From a virus (lineage: Duplodnaviria; Heunggongvirae; Uroviricota; Caudoviricetes), in the IMG/VR virus record IMGVR_UViG_3300011338_000526: DNA of 11,965 bases, one strand, 5' to 3'. A program made the position numbers and the translations under genes. A model generated the notes under the pieces. It was not told the origin of the DNA. It did not search any database and saw only the letters and a list, made by a program, of their open reading frames with translations. Below, in pieces: positions 109 to 11,113 of this stretch. How positions within the stretch are numbered: position 1 is the first letter of the stretch; every line of letters begins with the position of its first letter.

Positions 109-3100
109 ATGGCAACTCTCACGATCAATCACTACATCAATCAGTCGAACAGCTTCATCACTGATATTCGTAATAACAGAAATGCGTATTACATGATCGC
201 ATCAAGATCGCAACCATGGGCTAACAGCTCAGGCGGCAACGATGATGCTGCTGTATTGGCTTCGAACAACTCGGTTTCTCAGGTCGAGCAAACTGTGTAT
301 AACGACGTCTTGTTTGGCAAATTGTTGAAGGACGCGGATGTTATTAACGTTGTACCGAGATACAACTGGTCAAGCGGTGCAGTTTACGCTGCGTACGATC
401 AAAATGACGCGAACTTGTATGACAAACAGTTCTACGTTGTAACAGACGAGTATGAAGTATACAAGTGCATCGACAACAACAACGGTGCTGCATCGACCGT
501 CAAGCCTTCGCTCACTTCAGTTTCGGGCACGTTTAAGACTGGCGACGGCTACGTTTGGAAGTATATGTACTCAATTAGTTCTTCCTCAAACACGAAGTTC
601 GCGACTACCGAATACATTCCGGTCGATGAAAATTTGACCGTAAGAGACAACGCCACGCCAGGTTCAATTGATCTTATTAAGGTGACGGACGGCGGTAATG
701 GTTACTCGGTTTTCGAAACAGGTTACATAACCGGAGTCGACGAACGAGGCTCGCGAATTCAGCTGCCGGCAACGTCGTCTAGCGTTGACAATTATTACGC
801 GAATTCTTCTATCTACCTCAAGTCAGGTTTTGGTGCAGGTCAGATTCGCGAAATCGCAACGTACGACGGAGCGTCAAAACAAATTGTCGTTGCCGGTAAT
901 TCGCTTGATCTTTTCACAAGACTAGATCTTGCCAACGCCGAAGGAACTATCGCAACGGGATACTACGCCCAACAACGTTACGATGACGTGAGATATCTTT
1001 ACTCTAAGGGATATTTCAACGTTGATTCGAATGTCGCTCAGTCAGACACCGGAGTGACGGGTAGAGTTATTGCATCGAATTCTAGCGTTATTCAAGTCAT
1101 AAAGACTAATCAAGACTCGTTGTTTCAAGCTACGCTTCCGATTGTAGACGTAAGTCAAGCCGGAACGCAGAAGACAGGAACTGCAAACGTAGGAAACGTC
1201 GGATCTTGTAGTGTAGCGTTCGTTGTGACTCCTGGTAGCGGATACTCCGCCAATGCCGTTGTTACAATAACGCCCAGCGGGACAACTGGATCCGGCGGAG
1301 TCGCGAACGCTCAGGTCAACTCATCAGGAAGAGTTTCGGCTGTGTTGATATCGACTGCCGGCAGCGGATACTTTACGGCTCCTACCCTTACAATTGCAGC
1401 GCCTACGCCGCAACCCGTGATCGCCAATACATCTGGCGTTAACAACGCGTCTGATGTGTTACTTCTGGCATCAGCCAACTCTCGTTTCCTAGTTGGCGAT
1501 AGACTCTACTACGGCGTTCCAACTGGTAACACGGCAATCCCGCCCCTCACCGGCAACTCGTTTTACTTTGTAACATTTTCTAATACAACTGCGCTAGCTC
1601 TCTCCGCCACCAGCGGAGGCGCCAACATTAATATCAACACCGCAGTCGTCTCCAACCCAGGGGAATCGCACAGTCTCACAGGAAGTACCGCAACAGCTGT
1701 TATGTTTTGCGACAACCAAGTCGTTCGTGGAAACTCAGCGAATCTGAATTCGCTGAGTAACGGTTACAGTAATGGCGATTATATCAGAGTCGGCGCAAAT
1801 ACGACGAGCAACATAAGAAGAGTTGCCAACGCAGTCAACACGTCTGTATTGATCGTAACGGCTCCTTTCGGCAACACTTTCACTGCTACAACTAACAATC
1901 ATTTTAAAATGGTTACGGTGGCTGAAGTTGAAACTGCGCCTCTCATTCGCGAAGCAAATGGTTTTATTCTAGACACAAATTTGACATCGGTGCAATTAGC
2001 TATTTCAAATTCTGTTCTGCCAGGCGTAAACTTCATAGTCGGCGAAAATGTTAAAATGACGAATTTAGCTCGCGACTACCAAGGCGCAAATGCAACTATC
2101 GCGTTTGCTAATTCGTCTACCGTAATTCTTTCTAATGTGTCGGGTACATGGCTTGTTAATAGCGGCGGAACTCAGTTATACGTAAGCGGGGATTCTTCGC
2201 TTCAGTTGTCGCGAATTAACGATGTAGTAAGCAACCCGAACATCACGATAGAACAGCAACGAGGCGTGTTTAAGCTCGGATATCAGATATTCTTTAAAGC
2301 TAATGCGGAAAGCGTTTTTTACAGCGGGAATGCCTCGCTCATCTCTCAGTTCTCTCTGCCCAACGATCTTACGGAATATCAGATCGGTCCTACGGTTAAA
2401 ATCACCGGCGATGGAGCCAACGCTCTTGGGATCGCGATAGTGAATACAGCAGTCAATTCGATTTACAACGTTGTTGGAATTGATATGATTGACGCGGGAA
2501 TTGGATACACTCAGGCTAACGTCGAGATTTACGCCAACACGAGCCACGGATCTGGCGCAAAAGCAAGAGCAATTATCTCGCCATTGAATGGTCACGGTTA
2601 TGATCCTGTTACTGAACTGGGCGGGAGATACGTCGGCGTATCATCGAAGTTTGACTCAGTTGTCAACGAAAGTTACGAATTCCCGGGATATGGATCTTTC
2701 AGACAAGTTGGGATTCTAGAGAATCCACAGTTCAAAGACATAAGAGTTACATTGACCGACTTTGATCGCGTTAATATGTCTTTGGCCAGCGCTGTTTTTC
2801 CGGGAATAAATTGGAACCCCGGAGAAGTTGTAGTTCAATCAACAACCAACGCGGCTGGCGTAGTCGTCTATGGCAATTCTACTTTCCTACAGCTGAAAAG
2901 CGTTAAGGGAACGTTCAACACAGGAAACACGGTAAACGGCTACTATTCTACTGCCTCAGCCAACGTAGCCACGGCTGATGTTATCAGATTCCCCGTAGGC
3001 AACTCGGCTTCTTTCGTAACTCAATCGAATTCGGGATCGACCGGCATAATCACGGAGGTCATCAGTAACACTGTATACTCTATGAGCAACGTCGTCGGAC

Positions 3101-3762
3101 AATTTGCTGACGGAGACATTATGTATGACAACTTCGCCAACGCATACGCAACAGTTGAGTCGATCTCTACCGCCAATGGGACGAAAGATGTGTCTTCTAG
3201 TTTCGGCTTAAGATTCAACCAGACTGCGAGAATCACACTCACTTCAAGAACCGGTCAGTTCGCGAATAACGAATTCGTCCAACAGGATGTTTCTTTGGCT
3301 AGAGGCAGAGTTGTTTCGGCAACGGACGAAGTTGATCTAGTGATTTCTTCTCCTACTGGTTCGTTCTTTGTCGGTCAGACAATAACCGATACAACGACGA
3401 ACGCCAACGGCATCTGCATCTTCGCGAACAGTTCTTACCTTAAGCTGTCAGCGATCAGTCAGGGTCTTTCGTTCGTCGTCGGTGACACTATAAATAATGG
3501 ATTGGGATCGAACGCTACTATTTCTACGATCAATCCAGTTTTAGTTCTCAATGACGTATCGGACGTTACAAACTTCCAGGCTGGTTCGAACACTATCGTA
3601 GGTTTAACATCTGGCGCGAGAGCGACTTGTAACAACCAACTATTGATCAGACTACCAGACTTGGTAAGAGATTCCGGGAAATTGATTTACTCAGAGAGTT
3701 TCACACCTGTAACGCGAGCTCCGACTTCAAAAGAAGAAGTTAAACTTGTTATCAAATTTTAG
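109..3762 (+). CDS. gp8: Baseplate wedge subunit, gp8-like, enlarged by inserted beta-rich modules (1217 aa)
   Basis: Motifs recognised from cyanophage-type gp8: VVPRYNWSSG..Y..YD, FYVVTDEYEVYKCIDNNNG..STVKP, TGDGYVWKYMY, AIISPLNGHGYDPVTELG, FRQVGILENP, and the C-terminal PDL..SG..IY....PV.R....KEEVKLVIKF. It has a late promoter upstream and lies directly before a VrlC-like gene. Confidence 0.85.
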   Translation: MATLTINHYINQSNSFITDIRNNRNAYYMIASRSQPWANSSGGNDDAAVLASNNSVSQVEQTVYNDVLFGKLLKDADVINVVPRYNWSSGAVYAAYDQNDANLYDKQFYVVTDEYEVYKCIDNNNGAASTVKPSLTSVSGTFKTGDGYVWKYMYSISSSSNTKFATTEYIPVDENLTVRDNATPGSIDLIKVTDGGNGYSVFETGYITGVDERGSRIQLPATSSSVDNYYANSSIYLKSGFGAGQIREIATYDGASKQIVVAGNSLDLFTRLDLANAEGTIATGYYAQQRYDDVRYLYSKGYFNVDSNVAQSDTGVTGRVIASNSSVIQVIKTNQDSLFQATLPIVDVSQAGTQKTGTANVGNVGSCSVAFVVTPGSGYSANAVVTITPSGTTGSGGVANAQVNSSGRVSAVLISTAGSGYFTAPTLTIAAPTPQPVIANTSGVNNASDVLLLASANSRFLVGDRLYYGVPTGNTAIPPLTGNSFYFVTFSNTTALALSATSGGANININTAVVSNPGESHSLTGSTATAVMFCDNQVVRGNSANLNSLSNGYSNGDYIRVGANTTSNIRRVANAVNTSVLIVTAPFGNTFTATTNNHFKMVTVAEVETAPLIREANGFILDTNLTSVQLAISNSVLPGVNFIVGENVKMTNLARDYQGANATIAFANSSTVILSNVSGTWLVNSGGTQLYVSGDSSLQLSRINDVVSNPNITIEQQRGVFKLGYQIFFKANAESVFYSGNASLISQFSLPNDLTEYQIGPTVKITGDGANALGIAIVNTAVNSIYNVVGIDMIDAGIGYTQANVEIYANTSHGSGAKARAIISPLNGHGYDPVTELGGRYVGVSSKFDSVVNESYEFPGYGSFRQVGILENPQFKDIRVTLTDFDRVNMSLASAVFPGINWNPGEVVVQSTTNAAGVVVYGNSTFLQLKSVKGTFNTGNTVNGYYSTASANVATADVIRFPVGNSASFVTQSNSGSTGIITEVISNTVYSMSNVVGQFADGDIMYDNFANAYATVESISTANGTKDVSSSFGLRFNQTARITLTSRTGQFANNEFVQQDVSLARGRVVSATDEVDLVISSPTGSFFVGQTITDTTTNANGICIFANSSYLKLSAISQGLSFVVGDTINNGLGSNATISTINPVLVLNDVSDVTNFQAGSNTIVGLTSGARATCNNQLLIRLPDLVRDSGKLIYSESFTPVTRAPTSKEEVKLVIKF
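3489..3496 (+). promoter_or_regulatory. Possible intragenic late promoter TATAAATA (inside the gp8-like gene)
   Basis: Perfect T4 late consensus about 300 nt upstream of the ATG at 3790; could be a coding coincidence (ACT ATA AAT A). Confidence 0.35.
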
Positions 3763-3789: not shown

Positions 3790-6700
3790 ATGGCGCTAGA
3801 TACAGACCTTTCGCGTAAGCCATACTTCGATGACTACGAAGTATCTAAGAACTTTTACAGAGTCCTCTACAGACCAGCTGTTGCTGTTCAGGCGCGCGAA
3901 CTCAATCAGATGCAGACGATCCTTCAGGATCAGATCGATAAGTTTGGTCGTCACATCTTTAAGGAAGGTTCTGTTGTCGAAGGTTGCGCCTTCACGTTCG
4001 ACAATTCATACAACTACGTAAAGATCAAAGACAACTTCGCGAACAACTCGGCTATCTCGAACATCAACGAATTCGTTGGAAGAATTGCTGTAAACTCTAA
4101 CGGTCTTCGCGCGCGAGTGATTAATGCCATCAATGGTTATGAAGCGGAAGATCCGGATCTCAACACGCTGTATATCAAGTACCTGAATTCAAGCACATTC
4201 GCTAATGGCGTTCAACAATCGAATTTCTCTAACAACGAAACGATTCAGATTCAATCTGACGCAGCCGTCAATATCAGCAACGTAGTCGTAGCATCTGTAT
4301 CAAATTCAACTGGTAAAGGTTATGCGTTCTCGACTACGGAGGGCGTGATCTTCAAGAAAGGTTTCTTCGTCCGTGTTGAACCTCAGACGCTGGTAGTTTC
4401 GAAGTACAATAACATCCCAGACCAAGTATCCGTCGGTTTTGAAGCACTTGAAGAGATTGTAACTCCGGAAATTGATACATCTCTGCTGGATAATGCCGCA
4501 GGTTCTCCAAACCAAAATGCTCCTGGTGCACACAGACTTAAGCTTGTTCCAACTCTAGTGGTCAGGAACGCCAGCGATATCGCGAACACCACAACATTCT
4601 TTTCTCTTTGCGACTTCAAAAATGGTCTTCCCGTTTCAATCAAGAACGATCCGCAGTATGCTGCTCTTGCAAAGGACACGGCTCGTCGCACATTTGAAAC
4701 CAACGGCGATTACATCGTCAATCCGTTCCTACTGAGCACCGAAAAGAAGTACACGTATCAATCGAACACTGCAAACTCGGATTACCTGAGTATCGTATCA
4801 ACACCAGGCATCGGATACGTTAAGGGATATAGAGTAGAGTTTATCAATAACAACACCGCTGATCTTCGTAAAGGTACAGATTTCGCTGCAGTATCCAACC
4901 AATTAGTTACGGCTAACTTTGGCTACTACTTCAACGTGAACGAGTTTGCCGGCGATTTCAATAGCGACGGGTTGGCTCAAATTCAGTTGCACAGCACGGC
5001 TAAGACTGCTATAACCAACAATCTATTCTTAGGGACTTCGTACACCGATACCACTATAATCGGAACTGCATACGTTAGAGGCGTAGTTTATGATTCTGCG
5101 CCGCAAGAACCGGTAGTAGTTAATGCGACGTTCACAGGAACAATCAGCGCAACGACTCTCACCGTTTCTTCTATTTTAAGCGGCACGATTGCTATTGGAC
5201 AAGTTCTAAAAGGAACCGGCGTCACTGCTGGCACTACCATCACGGGAGGAAGCGGAAACGTTTGGACGCTGTCGGCTTCTTCGACGGTCTCGACTTCGAC
5301 GGCTATGACTACCAGCACAGCGCCCGGATTCACCTACAGACTGTATGTGTTCAACATACAAATGAACCCAGGTCGTAAGCTTTCGGACGTGAGAAGCGTA
5401 ATCTATTACACTTCATCAACCCAAAGAGCGGTCGCCGACATAGTTCTTGATAAGGACTTCACTGGAACTAATATCGCTAAGATTCAAGAATCCGCTAGCG
5501 AGACTATGATCTATCCGTTCGGACAGAAGGCGATTAAGCGAGACGGATTTAACAACACAAGTTACGTATACAGAAACAGAGTAAATTCGAATTTCGTTAG
5601 CACAACAGGATTGCTAACGCTCCCTATCGTCGACGTTGCTGGCGCTAACGAACAGTTTAATTATGGCGCAGGCATTCTTTCGCAACCTTCCGAGACTACG
5701 TTCGTCGTCACTCCAATAGCTTCCGGATTCAGTAATTTTAAGACCGGTAACGTTACGGTGACGGGAACTACTGTAGCGAATGCTGGCGCTACATCAACTC
5801 TATTCCAGACTGAGTACGCCGTAGGAGATTACATCTACGTCAATTCGCAGGCTAGAAAAATCGTTTCCATCGCTAACAATACGTCGATGACGATCGACGC
5901 TACAGTGAGCGCGACAAATCTCCAGCATCAGAAGACTTGGCAGGCTGGAGTGCCTATCAACTTCTTCTCTTCTTCGAGAACAATTACCATCGATGACGCG
6001 AATACAGCCACTGTTTCGCTCGGCGAAACTAGCAACGCGAATTTCGCGGCATCAATTTACTTCGACGTTCTTCGTTCTGAGACTCTACCCCTTCGCAAAA
6101 TTATTAACAGATCGACATACATTAGAATTCAAGCAAACAATAATTCGGGCGGAACAACTGGACCGTGGAGCCTTGGCATCCCTGATGCATTCAGACTGAA
6201 TGCCGTGTATGTTGACCAGGCTGGCGGCAATACTTACTTAACGACTAATCCGAATTTGTTGACCTCGTTCCGTCTTGACAACGGTCAAAGAGACAGTTAC
6301 TACGGTTTAGCTCAATTGTTATCTACAACGCCAGTTGCGCCCAATGCAACCTTACTTGTTTCTGTAGACAACTTCACCTACGATACATCGTCGCGTGCCG
6401 GATTCTTCACAGCAGCATCATATCCTATCGACGACGCTAATACAGCAAACGTCGCGGCGATTCAAACGTATCAAATCCCTCAATACACGTCAACTATCGG
6501 CGCGTTGTATGATCTTAGAGACAGCGTAGACTTTAGACCGTTCGCTGCTAATACGGCAAATGCAATCGCTAGCACTATCGCTACAGCTACCATCAATCCT
6601 TCGGGCGCGTTGACTATGTTTGCTTACGCGGATGGCTCGTATGTGCCTTCGCCAGGAACAAATTACAAATCGTCGATTCAATACTATCTACCAAGAAAAG

Positions 6701-8349
6701 ATAGAATCTCACTGACGACTGGCGGCGAGATCTTAATCACGGAGGGAACTGCTGAGCTAGACCCAGCACCGCCGCCAGAAGTGCCGGGGACTATGACTAT
6801 CGGTATCGCTACAGTGCCTCCATATCCTTCCTTGACGCCGACAGAAGCGAGAGCTTTCAACCGCTACGACTATGCGGTGCAGACATCAATTCTTCAGACC
6901 AAACGCTTTACGATGGCGGACATTGGCAAGATCAATAGAAGAATTGACAGACTTGAATACTACACGTCCCTATCTCTCCTAGAACAAGCTACAACCTCGT
7001 TGTTGGTTCGAAGCGGAGAAACCGGACAAAATAGATTCAAGAACGGGATCCTAGTTGACCCATTCAAGAACCACACGATCGGCAACACAAACGATCCAGC
7101 GTACAGAATCTCTATCGACGAAGTGAGGACTGAAGCTAGACCGTTCTTCCGCCAACAAACTATTGGTATGAGATTCGACCCTGTTGCTTCGGCTGAAATC
7201 ATCGGAGTTGCAGCTGCAGTTGATAAGAACGGAATCATCATGCTTCCGCATACGTCGAACAACGTCAATCAGCAGCAGCCTTTCGCTTCTAAGTACAGGA
7301 ACTGCATTGAGGGAAATATATTCAGCTATCGCGGTACAGTTGTTCTCGACCCTCCCGGAATTCTCGATTCCGACATCACACAGGGTCCGGTGATCAATAG
7401 CAGCCTAGACTTATCGTCAAACTTCGTCAATATCTCTAACAGTCTGAAGTCCGTGTTCGGAACTCAGTACGGCAATTGGTCCGATTACGGAACGTCGCAG
7501 CTCGTAGGACAACAATCAAGCGATAATATTACCGGCACCGGCTATGTTCAAAATCAACACGGTCAGGTTCAAGATTGGCAGAGAACTACAACAACCACTC
7601 TCGCGCAACAACAGCAACAGATCAGTAAGTCGTTCGCGTTTCAGCCGTCGGAAACCAGCGTTGAACTTGGTAACTACGTTTCGAACGTGTCTATACAGCC
7701 TTTTGTTCCCGCTAGACAAATCTTCTTCTACGCTAGAGGTATGAAGCCTAACACGGTGTTGAGAGTGTATTTGGACGGTATCGCTATGAATCAGGACTGC
7801 TTGCCGCTGATTCCGTACATAGGAACGTTGACGCAATCCGGCGGAAATAACTTCACGGACACTGGCAAGTTGGTGTATATCTCTCGAAACAACGGTAACT
7901 TCCAGTTCAACTCAATCGCCGATTGGGGAACCGCGCTGAGTAGCGACGCTTCCGGTAATGTGTACGGTATCCTCGCGATCCCAGCCAATCTATTCAAATC
8001 TGGGGAACTAGAATTTAGAATCACGGACATAACGGATCTTGCCATCGGCGAAAGCGCTGTAACCACACAGGCTTCAACGACTCTGTTTTGCTCCGCTCTA
8101 TCCGTTCAAAAGAACAAGTCTAATCTGCAGATCAGATCAGGCACTATAAATATCGAAGAACAAAAGCTCAATCAGACGGTGTATCGTGATGTCGTCACAA
8201 CTAATACTTGGCAATACTTCGATCCCAATATCCCGAACCCTCACTGCCCCCCTGAAAACTTTGCGCCGCCTATTACGCAGATCAGCGAGTCTTTCGACCC
8301 TGGCATACCTTTTAACGATTTTGTTGATGCTGGATCGCAGGGCAATTAA
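3790..8349 (+). CDS. VrlC-like / DUF4815 large virion structural protein, N-terminal part (1519 aa)
   Basis: The N-terminus PYFDDY...FYRVLYRP..AVQARELNQMQTILQDQI.KFG.HIFKEGS.V.G and internal motifs APGAHRLK, RTFETNGDYIV.PF, YVKGYRVE, RD.VDFRP, YYLPRKDRI, KRFTM.DIG.I..RI.RLEYYTSLSLLE and RFKNGILVDPF are ones I recognise from this T4-like family. It has its own late promoter and RBS. Confidence 0.85.
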   Translation: MALDTDLSRKPYFDDYEVSKNFYRVLYRPAVAVQARELNQMQTILQDQIDKFGRHIFKEGSVVEGCAFTFDNSYNYVKIKDNFANNSAISNINEFVGRIAVNSNGLRARVINAINGYEAEDPDLNTLYIKYLNSSTFANGVQQSNFSNNETIQIQSDAAVNISNVVVASVSNSTGKGYAFSTTEGVIFKKGFFVRVEPQTLVVSKYNNIPDQVSVGFEALEEIVTPEIDTSLLDNAAGSPNQNAPGAHRLKLVPTLVVRNASDIANTTTFFSLCDFKNGLPVSIKNDPQYAALAKDTARRTFETNGDYIVNPFLLSTEKKYTYQSNTANSDYLSIVSTPGIGYVKGYRVEFINNNTADLRKGTDFAAVSNQLVTANFGYYFNVNEFAGDFNSDGLAQIQLHSTAKTAITNNLFLGTSYTDTTIIGTAYVRGVVYDSAPQEPVVVNATFTGTISATTLTVSSILSGTIAIGQVLKGTGVTAGTTITGGSGNVWTLSASSTVSTSTAMTTSTAPGFTYRLYVFNIQMNPGRKLSDVRSVIYYTSSTQRAVADIVLDKDFTGTNIAKIQESASETMIYPFGQKAIKRDGFNNTSYVYRNRVNSNFVSTTGLLTLPIVDVAGANEQFNYGAGILSQPSETTFVVTPIASGFSNFKTGNVTVTGTTVANAGATSTLFQTEYAVGDYIYVNSQARKIVSIANNTSMTIDATVSATNLQHQKTWQAGVPINFFSSSRTITIDDANTATVSLGETSNANFAASIYFDVLRSETLPLRKIINRSTYIRIQANNNSGGTTGPWSLGIPDAFRLNAVYVDQAGGNTYLTTNPNLLTSFRLDNGQRDSYYGLAQLLSTTPVAPNATLLVSVDNFTYDTSSRAGFFTAASYPIDDANTANVAAIQTYQIPQYTSTIGALYDLRDSVDFRPFAANTANAIASTIATATINPSGALTMFAYADGSYVPSPGTNYKSSIQYYLPRKDRISLTTGGEILITEGTAELDPAPPPEVPGTMTIGIATVPPYPSLTPTEARAFNRYDYAVQTSILQTKRFTMADIGKINRRIDRLEYYTSLSLLEQATTSLLVRSGETGQNRFKNGILVDPFKNHTIGNTNDPAYRISIDEVRTEARPFFRQQTIGMRFDPVASAEIIGVAAAVDKNGIIMLPHTSNNVNQQQPFASKYRNCIEGNIFSYRGTVVLDPPGILDSDITQGPVINSSLDLSSNFVNISNSLKSVFGTQYGNWSDYGTSQLVGQQSSDNITGTGYVQNQHGQVQDWQRTTTTTLAQQQQQISKSFAFQPSETSVELGNYVSNVSIQPFVPARQIFFYARGMKPNTVLRVYLDGIAMNQDCLPLIPYIGTLTQSGGNNFTDTGKLVYISRNNGNFQFNSIADWGTALSSDASGNVYGILAIPANLFKSGELEFRITDITDLAIGESAVTTQASTTLFCSALSVQKNKSNLQIRSGTINIEEQKLNQTVYRDVVTTNTWQYFDPNIPNPHCPPENFAPPITQISESFDPGIPFNDFVDAGSQGN
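8145..8152 (+). promoter_or_regulatory. Possible intragenic late promoter TATAAATA upstream of the 8392 ORF
   Basis: Perfect T4 late consensus about 240 nt before the ATG at 8392; the 42-nt spacer before that gene has no NATAAATA of its own. Confidence 0.4.
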
Positions 8350-8391
8350 AATATTTTTGAAATACGATCGACAACAAAGAGTGGAATTTAG

Positions 8392-10896
8392 ATGAAGCCA
8401 ATCGCACAAACCTTTATTGCAATCGAGCCTTCTACTGGTGTGGAGTCTGTGTTCTTGACTAAGATTGATTTGTTTTTTCAATCCAAGTCAAGCACATTCG
8501 GCGTTGAGCTTCAGATCAGAGAGACCGATAACGGATACCCGACTAATAAAGTTCTTCCTTACGCGTCGAAGGTTCTTTCTTCATCGCAGGTTTCCGTGAG
8601 CGGCGATTCTTCTGTTGCAACTACGTTCGAATTCGCGACGCCTGTGATGCTTAGAACCAACGAACAGTTCGCTCTTGTAGTTATTCCGGAAGCGGGAAAT
8701 CCAGACTACAACATTTGGATTGGGGCTTTGGAAGGAATAGATGTAGTTTCTAAAGTTCCTATCTACACAAATAACCAGCTAGGTTCTTTGTTCATCTCAT
8801 CAAACGATTTGAACTTCACGCCTATTCAAAATGAGAGTTTGAAGTATACAGCCTACATTGCGGACTTCACTTCTTCGACCGCCAGGGCTGTGTTCAAGAA
8901 TGGGTTTACCGATAATCTTGTAGTGACGAATTTGATCGGTGAATACCTGAAGCAAGAAAAACTTGTCGTGTCCAATAATCAACTTCAACTTGCTTCTTTG
9001 GCGGTCGCTTCAGCCACCGCGAATACGATCACGGCAGGACAAGTTGTGTTTCAGCCGCCCGGAGTATCAGCGGCGAATCTAGCGCAATCCACAGCCAACG
9101 GTGTAGTGTATTTCGCTAATACAACAACAGTGTTGCTGAACAACGTGCGCGGTTCATTCGTGACAGGAACGGGTATTAGGAACGCGAACACTACCAATAC
9201 TTGGCCAAACTTAACTTTTGCTAACCAAACAGTGACTACTACATCGGCTTGTAACGTTATTACAGTTCCCAACGCTAATGCAACTTTGACAACGGATTTC
9301 GCTGTTGGCAACTACATCTATGTCGGGAAACCTACGCGCGCAGATTTGCAAATCCTTCAGATTACAGTTGCTAATGCTGCCGCTAACACTATCACTCTAT
9401 CGGGTAATATTGCGTTTAGCAGCACAACGGCGACTATTGGTAGATTGAAAGATGATGCTAATCTGACAGGAAACTTCGCTAGCATTACAGGCGGGGATAA
9501 TAAGTTTTTGACCGTCACCTCGGTCAGTTCTAATGCCACTTCAAACTTTACCGGAAGCAATGGCGCTCTGATCATCGGAAGAACGTCGGGCGCTTCTGCG
9601 GTTATCAGTGACGTTTTGGATATTCTATACGAAAACATCACAACAACAATTCCCGACATTGAACCGAATCTTACTAGCGTTAATTGGTCTTTCTCTGGGA
9701 CGCAAAACGACACTTCTAGAACTAGCGACGCTCCTCAGAGCTACTCGATAACCAACGAAGTGCCATACGATTTCATTGACAAGACTCGCGCGATCATGTC
9801 AAGAAGCAACGAGTTCGCGAACCCACCCACAGCGGGAGCGGGCAATAGTTCGTTGATAGTTACGGCTCAATTGAACACAGCTAACTCAAAGATCACTCCC
9901 TACATTGATACAATTCGCAACTCGGTCACGACGATTCACAATCTTGTATATCCCGAGAGCTCAATCAACGGCTTCATCGTTAACTACACTAGCGCGAACG
10001 GCAATTTAATTATAGGCGATAACGTTCAACAAGCCAACTCTACAGTGACATCGAACGGTTACGTCTTTTTCGCGAACTCTTCTGTAATATACATCACGAA
10101 TGTGTCTTCATCAAACACTTCGTCAATAGCTACATTCAATACAGCAAACAGCGTCGTAAACAGCCCGAGAATCGGCAACGTCAATATCTCGACTGTCACA
10201 ACATTCAACGAGACCGGTAGCGTTGGCTCTAGTGCAACAAGATATATCTCAAAGAACGTGATTCTCGCAGAACAACAGGATGCGGAAGATTTAGTTTGCT
10301 ATTTGACTGCATATAGACCTCCGGGAACGGACTTCAAGGTCTATGGTAAGTTTTTGGCTGGATCTGACAGCGCTACTTTTCAGTCTAAGGACTGGTCCGC
10401 AATGGTCGAGACAACAAGCTCTGCGCTGGTAAGCAGCGCGGTTAACACGAACGATTTAGTTGAGCTAGTATATGATCTACCCACATCCGTTCAGATCATA
10501 GCGAACTCAGCGACTGTAAGTAACACATCGGCGTCCGTTAACGTCAACTCTACTGCCGCGTTCTCCGCTGGTTCGTTTGTCTATGTGGTGGACAATTCAA
10601 CGGGACTTATCAATGTAAGACAAGTTACGGGCATCGTTAACTCGACAATCATGACCGTCTCCTCGAATCTTTCAATAAATTCAACCAACGCTGCAGTTGG
10701 AATAATCCCAGGTCTTCAGTCTCGAGCTGGGGCATTCAAGTATGCCAATAACAGTAGCATCGTTCGATACGTAACGAACGGCGACGGCGTGTTCGATACA
10801 TACAAGGTGTTCGCCGTCAAGGTCGTTCTAGTGTCTAATAATTACCACATCGTTCCTAGAATGGCTGACCTGCGTTGCTTGGCGTTGCAGGTGTAA
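8392..10896 (+). CDS. VrlC-like virion structural protein, C-terminal part as a separate ORF (834 aa)
   Basis: Begins PIAQTF...VFLTKIDLFF..K....VELQIR..NGYPT..VLP and has ESLKYT.Y.A.F, RYISK.V.LA...AEDL..YL.AYRP....KVY.K and FAVKVVL.S.N...VPR..DLR.LAL, which I recognise as the C-terminal region of single-chain VrlC-like proteins. Purine-rich AAAGAGTGGA lies upstream of the ATG. Confidence 0.8.
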   Translation: MKPIAQTFIAIEPSTGVESVFLTKIDLFFQSKSSTFGVELQIRETDNGYPTNKVLPYASKVLSSSQVSVSGDSSVATTFEFATPVMLRTNEQFALVVIPEAGNPDYNIWIGALEGIDVVSKVPIYTNNQLGSLFISSNDLNFTPIQNESLKYTAYIADFTSSTARAVFKNGFTDNLVVTNLIGEYLKQEKLVVSNNQLQLASLAVASATANTITAGQVVFQPPGVSAANLAQSTANGVVYFANTTTVLLNNVRGSFVTGTGIRNANTTNTWPNLTFANQTVTTTSACNVITVPNANATLTTDFAVGNYIYVGKPTRADLQILQITVANAAANTITLSGNIAFSSTTATIGRLKDDANLTGNFASITGGDNKFLTVTSVSSNATSNFTGSNGALIIGRTSGASAVISDVLDILYENITTTIPDIEPNLTSVNWSFSGTQNDTSRTSDAPQSYSITNEVPYDFIDKTRAIMSRSNEFANPPTAGAGNSSLIVTAQLNTANSKITPYIDTIRNSVTTIHNLVYPESSINGFIVNYTSANGNLIIGDNVQQANSTVTSNGYVFFANSSVIYITNVSSSNTSSIATFNTANSVVNSPRIGNVNISTVTTFNETGSVGSSATRYISKNVILAEQQDAEDLVCYLTAYRPPGTDFKVYGKFLAGSDSATFQSKDWSAMVETTSSALVSSAVNTNDLVELVYDLPTSVQIIANSATVSNTSASVNVNSTAAFSAGSFVYVVDNSTGLINVRQVTGIVNSTIMTVSSNLSINSTNAAVGIIPGLQSRAGAFKYANNSSIVRYVTNGDGVFDTYKVFAVKVVLVSNNYHIVPRMADLRCLALQV

Positions 10897-10897
10897 C

Positions 10898-11113
10898 TTG
10901 AGCGACTTTATTAAAGTAAAGGACAACAAAGATCTCGTCCGTCACAAACAAAGCGGAGCTGTATTGAACACTAATTTAAAAGAGTTGGATAAATACAAGC
11001 AAGAACGCGACGAGAAGCTCAGGTTGAAAAAGTTAGTCGACGAAACAGAGCAGATCAAAACGGACATAGACGAGATCAAGTCTCTATTGAGACAATTGAT
11101 AGGACAGAAATAA
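10898..11113 (+). CDS. Small conserved T4-like hypothetical protein with C-terminal coiled coil (71 aa, TTG start)
   Basis: The pattern IKV.D..DLVR...SGAVLNT...followed by a heptad helix ending DIDEIKSLLRQL resembles the small gene that usually follows vrlC-like genes. AGGTG lies upstream, and the start is 1 nt after the previous stop. Confidence 0.75.
   Translation: MSDFIKVKDNKDLVRHKQSGAVLNTNLKELDKYKQERDEKLRLKKLVDETEQIKTDIDEIKSLLRQLIGQK

Follow-up and report, generated by a model that had tools for sequence, protein, structure and literature searches.

A two-gene form of the VrlC/DUF4815 baseplate protein in an uncultured T4-like phage, very probably the result of an ancient gene fission

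Introduction

A stretch of 11,965 nucleotides (nt) from the IMG/VR virus record IMGVR_UViG_3300011338_000526 (Caudoviricetes), called the window here, carries a gene for a VrlC-like baseplate protein that is divided into two consecutive open reading frames (ORFs). A segment of 174 nt (8224–8397) lies at the division, and its deletion in silico leaves one long frame. The locus raises the question of whether this segment is removed from the RNA or passed over by the ribosome, whether the two products are rejoined as proteins, or whether the ORFs are simply two genes. An original prediction, made from the sequence alone, preferred a clean fission giving two virion proteins, and kept splicing and ribosomal bypassing as alternatives. 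Our analysis indicates that the arrangement is very probably an ancient, inherited gene fission of a VrlC/DUF4815 (tripod-type) baseplate protein in an uncultured T4-like phage, with no removal at the RNA or protein level.

In pelagi- and cyanomyophages, the role of T4 gp7 is believed to be taken over by VrlC (PMC7029224). Homologues of the Gp106 type, A511 Gp106 and Deep-Blue Gp176, are associated with a double-layered baseplate (PMC11406892). In Staphylococcus phage 812, the tripod protein gp119 (PDB 9euf/9eui) has a Cwp84-like leg domain that moves 88 Å on contraction (EMBO J 2026, PMC13433997).

Results

Position of the break in the gene and in the family

Direct reading of the window showed that the ORF at 3790–8349 (P0001, 1519 amino acids (aa)) and the ORF at 8392–10896 (P0002, 834 aa) are in the same frame. 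They are separated by TAA (8347–8349), 13 sense codons (8350–8388) and TAG (8389–8391), which is followed by the ATG at 8392. The end region of P0001 reads T-W-Q-Y-F-D (D at 8221–8223)-P-N-I-P-N-P-H-C and continues to the TAA, and P0002 begins with M-K-P-I-A-Q-T-F. The coordinates, the shared frame and the order of stop, 13 codons and stop in the original prediction were all confirmed in this way. The features of the locus are as follows.

109–3762, + strand: gp8-like baseplate wedge subunit gene, upstream context and synteny anchor (Pfam Phage-Gp8; phrog_438, baseplate wedge)
3790–8349, + strand: VrlC/DUF4815 N-terminal protein P0001, probable body of a tripod-type baseplate protein (PF16075; phrog_358 positions 1–1423; match to 9euf)
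8224–8346, + strand: 41-codon C-terminal tail of P0001, at the position of the variable linker of the family (translated alignment with L003, L005–L010 and L016)
8230–8286, + strand: tail block I-P-N-P-H-C-P-P-E-N-...-I-S, conserved at the protein level in a sub-clade (nonsynonymous against synonymous differences, pN/pS)
8347–8349, + strand: TAA stop codon of P0001 (read in the window; identical in independent Logan assemblies)
8350–8391, + strand: 42-nt intercistronic spacer with Shine-Dalgarno-like AAAGAG (8376–8381) and GGA (8383–8385); the in-frame TAG (8389–8391) abuts the ATG
8392–10896, + strand: VrlC C-terminal protein P0002, probable leg-like lectin beta-sandwich and distal domains (phrog_358 positions 1423–2055; AlphaFold2 model and Foldseek)
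8398–8415, + strand: P-I-A-Q-T-F motif, in the first beta-strand of the downstream domain (P0002 residues 4–9; conservation and model)

P0001 matches Pfam DUF4815 (PF16075) in its N-terminal part with 151.9 bits against a cut-off of 30. In phrog_358, a profile of 2056 positions, residues 1–1479 of P0001 cover positions 1–1423 (E 1e-231) and residues 3–833 of P0002 cover positions 1423–2055; full colinear coverage is reached only by both ORFs combined. Because this coverage breaks at one profile position, P0001 and P0002 are two parts of one VrlC-type protein. Mapping of the break on the family, proposed as a check in the original prediction, placed it at position 1423, just before P-I-A-Q-T-F.

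The original prediction ascribed a W/Y-D-P-[LI]-A-Q-[ST]-F motif to single-chain proteins at this point. This was borne out by 104 of 118 long single-chain homologues, which contain a single P-[LIVM]-[AS]-Q-[ST]-F, nearly always with Asp before it. With the profile coverage and this motif, the assignment of the pair to the family goes beyond chance. The family feature of one chain with an internal motif is absent from the window, where the motif opens a separate ORF; therefore the window represents a split variant of the VrlC family. Residues P3, I4, A5, Q6, T7 and F8 of P0002 are invariant in 25 relatives, and M1 and K2 almost so. Fused forms share at most about 47% identity with the C-terminal domain encoded by the window, and a blastn search of 7700–8900 against GenBank phages gave no match.

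The body of fused homologues closes with a conserved domain, after which a variable low-complexity linker, similar in length to the tail (approximately 25–50 residues) and rich in Gly, Asp, Pro, Ser and Thr, leads up to D-P-[IL]-A-Q-T-F. The tails of split forms are Gly/Asp-rich or Pro-rich and look like these linkers, which places the fission at the end of the flexible linker. The Pro that follows W-Q-Y-F-D in the window is not conserved, and close kin have D-T or D-R. The Y-F-D/P-I-A-Q-T-F join of the original prediction is indeed produced by deleting the 58 codons of 8224–8397, but it depends on this Pro. The notion that W-Q-Y-F-D-P retains the D-P of the family was dropped because of the T or R in close kin.

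Comparison with single-chain VrlC genes

The single-chain genes of P-RSM6 (CPXG_00123), phiM12 (SmphiM12_129) and Melnitz-3 (gene 166) occupy the same place as the window pair, directly after a gp8-like gene and with a small ORF next. The order of gp8-like gene and VrlC is the same in the window and these three phages, each of which has a wedge gene directly upstream; the homologue of MED4-213 is also one continuous gene. The single-chain proteins of T4-like cyano-, pelagi- and rhizobiophages match phrog_358 colinearly and have D-P-[LI]-A-Q-[ST]-F at the opening of their C-terminal part, as in the window pair. They are single chains of approximately 1800–2500 aa, whereas the window encodes proteins of 1519 and 834 aa, between which lie a stop codon, a spacer and a second start.

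In the window, a 71-codon ORF with a TTG start (10898–11113) begins two bases past the stop of P0002. ORFs of 60–87 codons are found at the same place after VrlC in P-RSM6, MED4-213, Melnitz-3 and the loci L045, L047, L048 and L049. This ORF looks like a conserved small partner gene.

Body and leg domain

Both halves match one chain of solved structure and 1152 aa, the DUF4815 protein of the phage 812 baseplate (9euf). Residues 213–372 of P0001 align to 104–250 of this chain, and residues 21–177 of P0002 align to 805–963. The AlphaFold2 model of P0002 residues 1–220 (predicted local distance difference test score 76.7) is a beta-sandwich whose first strand, residues 4–9, is the P-I-A-Q-T-F motif. 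With this model, Foldseek returned the phage 812 chains 9eui_Q and 9euf_0 first (template modelling score 0.63, 31–33% identity) and the Cwp84 lectin-like domain next. By inference from these matches, P0002 would be the leg-plus-distal part and P0001 the body, and the cut would lie between the body and the distal module. The likening of the first domain of P0002 to the leg domain follows the Cwp84-like fold and the position of the alignment rather than published residue boundaries.

The window pair thus resembles gp119 of phage 812 in that both halves align to its chain and the model of P0002 1–220 superposes on it. Unlike the window, gp119, A511 Gp106 and Deep-Blue Gp176 are much shorter single chains from phages of Gram-positive hosts. 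A complex prediction from alignments of two parts, the last 190 aa of P0001 and P0002 residues 1–220, gave an uncontrolled score of 0.00 and no verdict, which weighs neither way.

Conservation of the split and of the second start

Relatives were collected as 40 IMG/VR loci whose downstream protein is 27–81% identical to P0002 over the first 220 aa. In all 40, the PIAQTF motif is immediately preceded by an ATG, and a ribosome site rich in purines and one or more stop codons are present as well. The start reads M-K-P-I-A-Q-T-F in 38 of them and M-T-N-P-I-A-Q-T-F in two (L011 and L012). Both the split and the MKPIAQTF start, which the original prediction had wanted compared, are thus common to the relatives. 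The ribosome sites of the relatives are AGGA, AAGG or GAGG, 5–10 nt ahead of the ATG. In the window, AAAGAG and GGA lie 6–10 nt before the ATG at 8392, much like the AAGAGGA before the ATG of P0001 at 3790.

A census by exhaustive HMMER search with P0002 residues 1–220 against 1.84 billion cluster representatives gave 2670 hits. In a tree of the downstream domain built from the best 133 classifiable of these hits and the window, the window falls in a clade of 44 representatives (50%-identity clusters; Shimodaira–Hasegawa-like approximate likelihood ratio test (SH-aLRT) 98), and all 44 are split. The same split across a clade had been named beforehand as the mark of an ordinary fission. The split is common to this deep clade down to about 27–35% identity, and both halves are conserved. 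The own ribosome site and start are kept across the relatives and the split is inherited by the clade, as in a gene fission.

The distance and the frame between the two ORFs are variable. Among the relatives the distance from stop to ATG ranges from -1 to 67 nt, and the upstream ORF extends approximately 15 to 200 residues past its last conserved domain. The two ORFs are in relative frame 0, 1 and 2 in 23, 10 and 8 of 41 loci, respectively; in the close relatives L005 and L016 the ORFs do not share a frame, and the frame relation in L028 is not that in L030. A mechanism that joined the flanks through the RNA or the ribosome would not withstand such variation.

The ribosome might in principle join the ORFs by a hop like that of T4 gene 60, from CCC at 8224 to CCA at 8398, or by readthrough of both stops, giving some full-length chain. 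The Pro codons at both edges and the frame shared in the window and in 23 of the 41 loci agree with such a mechanism. However, the take-off CCC and the landing CCA differ, the codon after take-off is AAT and not a stop, and no stable hairpin is predicted. The gap in T4 gene 60 is 50 nt, and the 174-nt gap of the window is far beyond this. The D-T or D-R of close kin is also unfavourable to a hop, two or more stops lie between the ORFs, and readthrough or bypass would have to cope with 18 of 41 loci in which the ORFs are in frame 1 or 2 (L005 and L016, both close kin, are among them), and with gaps of -1 to 67 nt that follow tails differing greatly in length. We regard joining by the ribosome as highly improbable.

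In the window (8389–8394), L003–L017, L028, L035 and L041, the second gene has a TAG or TAA stop immediately next to its ATG, irrespective of the upstream frame. This could be a start context or a termination-reinitiation device. In two distant loci (L033:2399–2968 and L034:2407–2976), the ORF before the M-K-P-I-A-Q-T-F gene does not align to the C-terminal domain of VrlC's body; judging from this, the gene order there may differ.

The 174-nt segment encodes a conserved tail and a spacer

In the sub-clade nearest to the window (L003–L010 and L016), the tail of the upstream protein reads I-x-N-P-H-[CS]-P-P-[EQ]-N-...-I-S-Q-[IV]-[SG]. Over 19 codons (57 nt), pN between the window and its kin is 0.15–0.22 and pS is 0.71–1.18. 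Among the kin pN is 0.08–0.24, and synonymous sites are saturated. Judging from these substitutions, the tail peptide encoded within 8224–8397 is under purifying selection in the frame of P0001, and the remaining 42 nt of the region is an ordinary intercistronic spacer. N-P-H-C-P-P and similar forms of the tail motif were sought by regular expression in 269 further proteins, all fused forms or C-terminal halves, and were absent; this result shows only that fused linkers are without the motif.

The region 8100–8520 is matched without any difference by Logan contigs from three studies, which may include the source sample. None of the Logan contigs of these studies, which are of DNA, joins across 8224–8397.

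A very small self-splicing intron, of group I or another kind, could occupy all or part of the 174 nt, and its removal would restore one long frame. Only the in-frame layout and the tidy Y-F-D/P-I-A-Q-T-F join speak for this. A cmscan search of 7900–8700 against Rfam with permissive filters gave no family match at E up to 10, only chance-level matches to unrelated families. The RNA of 8215–8410 is no more stable than its shuffles (z +0.55; of 200 shuffles, 147 have an equal or better fold). The Infernal and folding checks suggested by the original prediction thus gave no sign of an intron, and the U of the upstream flank with the terminal G of the segment, offered as a sign of group I junctions, carries no weight, being expected about 1 in 16 times by chance. 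An intron is further contradicted by the peptide under selection in the host frame, by the segments of relatives, which differ in length and frame, always have their own start codon and show no sporadic presence or absence, and by the lack of conservation of the Pro at the proposed 5′ junction. An intron at this place seems to us barely credible.

The T4 gene 60 bypass and the small group I introns of T4-like phages are likewise interruptions within a structural or enzyme gene of a phage that leave their flanks in frame, but the window has none of the defining features of either. The splicing and bypassing alternatives of the original prediction are not upheld by these results and are ruled out to the extent that sequence allows, since no RNA family or structure is found, gap and frame vary, and the segment encodes a selected peptide.

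A reading of the segment as a miniature inverted-repeat transposable element or an insertion sequence was rejected, since it has no terminal inverted repeats and the CCAAT of 5 nt that its two edges share is no more than expected by chance.

A sequence like a T4 late promoter, TATAAATA, is present at 8145–8152 inside the ORF of P0001, 240 nt before the ATG of P0002. The ATAAATA at this site is kept in relatives, but these letters are dictated by the codons for I-N-I within S-G-T-I-N-I-E-E, a conserved motif, and the first T of the element is G, C or A in kin. We list it as a candidate promoter.

Other chain breaks at the same boundary

In the tree, 17 further split forms are scattered among fused forms, and the supported branches force at least 8 changes. 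Three of these forms were checked on contigs (loci L045:1–3399, L046, L047:1615–7680 and L048:1643–7803; two samples contained the same one of the three). Each has a DUF4815 N-terminal ORF (1439–1451 aa where complete), a gap of 30–63 nt and an ORF of 559–600 aa. The second ORFs start with M-S-R-F-F-Q-S-V-V-S-P-L-A-Q-T-F, M-A-G-L-Q-V-S-D-P-I-A-Q-T-F and M-Q-G-I-D-P-I-A-Q-S-F, of which two keep D-P, and each second protein is followed by a small ORF of 60–80 aa. Only in L047 was a gp8-like gene noted upstream, as a faint match. The fissions of other lineages at the same linker are apparently independent of that in the clade of the window.

Many fused homologues have one to four tandem Hint domains of approximately 147–165 aa exactly at the junction (P0184, P0018, P0093, P0107 and P0283–P0302; loci L049:4001–10984 and L050:2216–9199). 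Each Hint domain starts with C-F-x-x-G-T, contains a T-x-x-H block and ends with V-H-N, which is followed by K or R instead of a nucleophile. Tandem copies are joined as H-N-K-C-F. After the final copy comes D-P-[LI]-[AS]-Q-T-F, in most cases without any intervening residues beyond the K or R and in a few through a short Gly-rich linker. P0184 is identical on 24 or more contigs with VrlC synteny. From the chemistry of inteins and bacterial intein-like (BIL) domains, such Hint domains are expected to cleave and not to splice. Self-cleavage at the same boundary is therefore predicted from these motifs. A tblastn search with the VrlC Hint domain against cultured phages returned only helicase inteins with 26–28% identity, and we found no paper on Hint domains in VrlC. 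In addition, the proteins P0271–P0281 (1472–1828 aa), which have no DUF4815 match, contain this Hint domain in tandem arrays of as many as seven copies, again joined as H-N-K-C-F.

These Hint domains, of the BIL-A or pretoxin-HINT-like kind, sit at the same linker site as the split of the window, and the predicted self-cleavage product would begin one or at most a few residues away from where P0002 starts. The window has no Hint domain and its chain break is genetic, whereas that of the Hint-bearing VrlC proteins is predicted from the motifs to be post-translational. The genetic cut at this point is found in the clade of the window and in at least three other lineages. As a tentative proposal, which we consider possible and still rather doubtful, a break of the chain just ahead of D-P-I-A-Q-T-F, made either genetically or by Hint domains, may be favoured for functional reasons throughout the family. 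The distal leg-anchor module would then act as a polypeptide of its own, held by the conserved tail (I-x-N-P-H-C-P-P-E-N...I-S-Q-I-S) as a docking peptide. If this were true, host-recognition modules could be exchanged independently of the baseplate body.

Protein trans-splicing by a split intein, as in fractured genes, would religate the two products after translation, and the occurrence of Hint domains at exactly this junction in other members of the family lends the idea some appeal. The tail of P0001, however, is only 41 residues long and lacks a Cys-led Hint N-block, and P0002 opens directly with the extein motif, which leaves no room for an intein C-fragment and no H-N-[CST]. Neither P0001 nor P0002 has a Pfam Hint match. 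Religation of this kind can be given hardly any credence.

Discussion

Our data indicate that the VrlC gene of the window is, very probably, an anciently split gene. In single-chain homologues the body is joined by a variable linker to the lectin-like leg domain that starts with D-P-[IL]-A-Q-[ST]-F, and the cut would have been made at the end of this linker. The first cistron (3790–8349) would have retained the linker as its 41-residue C-terminal tail and would terminate at the TAA. The second cistron (8392–10896) would start from its own ATG after the 42-nt Shine-Dalgarno-like spacer, with M-K in place of the x-D of the motif. Nothing would be removed from RNA or protein, and two polypeptides would be produced. 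Translation of both cistrons, the second from its own ribosome site, and association of the products in the virion are expected. From the fused homologues and the structure of phage 812, the two products probably assemble non-covalently in the baseplate. The clean fission preferred by the original prediction is supported by the clade-wide split; that both proteins are in virions is an expectation from homology.

A recent accident in a normally continuous gene, whether through nonsense mutation, insertion of a mobile element or faulty assembly, would agree with the one continuous gene of the cultured relatives checked (phiM12, P-RSM6, Melnitz-3 and MED4-213), but it has almost no probability given that a deep clade (about 27–35% identity) shares the split with both halves conserved, that there are no inverted repeats and no target duplication beyond the 5-nt CCAAT chance match, that independent assemblies are identical, and that no near-identical genome with an uninterrupted gene was found.

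Some points weigh against an ancient fission into two independently translated genes. The translation of both cistrons and the absence of a minor joined product are deduced solely by comparing sequences. There is some excess of frame 0 (23 of 41 loci), although these loci are not phylogenetically independent; this excess fits an in-frame origin of the split and has no demonstrated meaning. The first search for loci had M-K-P-I-A-Q-T-F among its patterns and was biased toward split forms, a concern that was removed by the unbiased HMMER census.

The finding is a modest one, a split variant of a known family, and its weight comes mainly from the size of the clade and from the recurrent breaks at one boundary. 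With it, a possible case of an exceptionally small intron, or of a second bypass of the gene 60 type, falls away, and the locus should be annotated as two genes, both for baseplate components. The analysis further delimits a clade of T4-like phages, large and apparently uncultured, with a two-part VrlC/tripod protein that is cut between the body and the lectin-like leg. Fissions and Hint domains at one site mark a module boundary, which is relevant to studies of baseplate assembly and to the reading of host-range modules in metagenomic phages.

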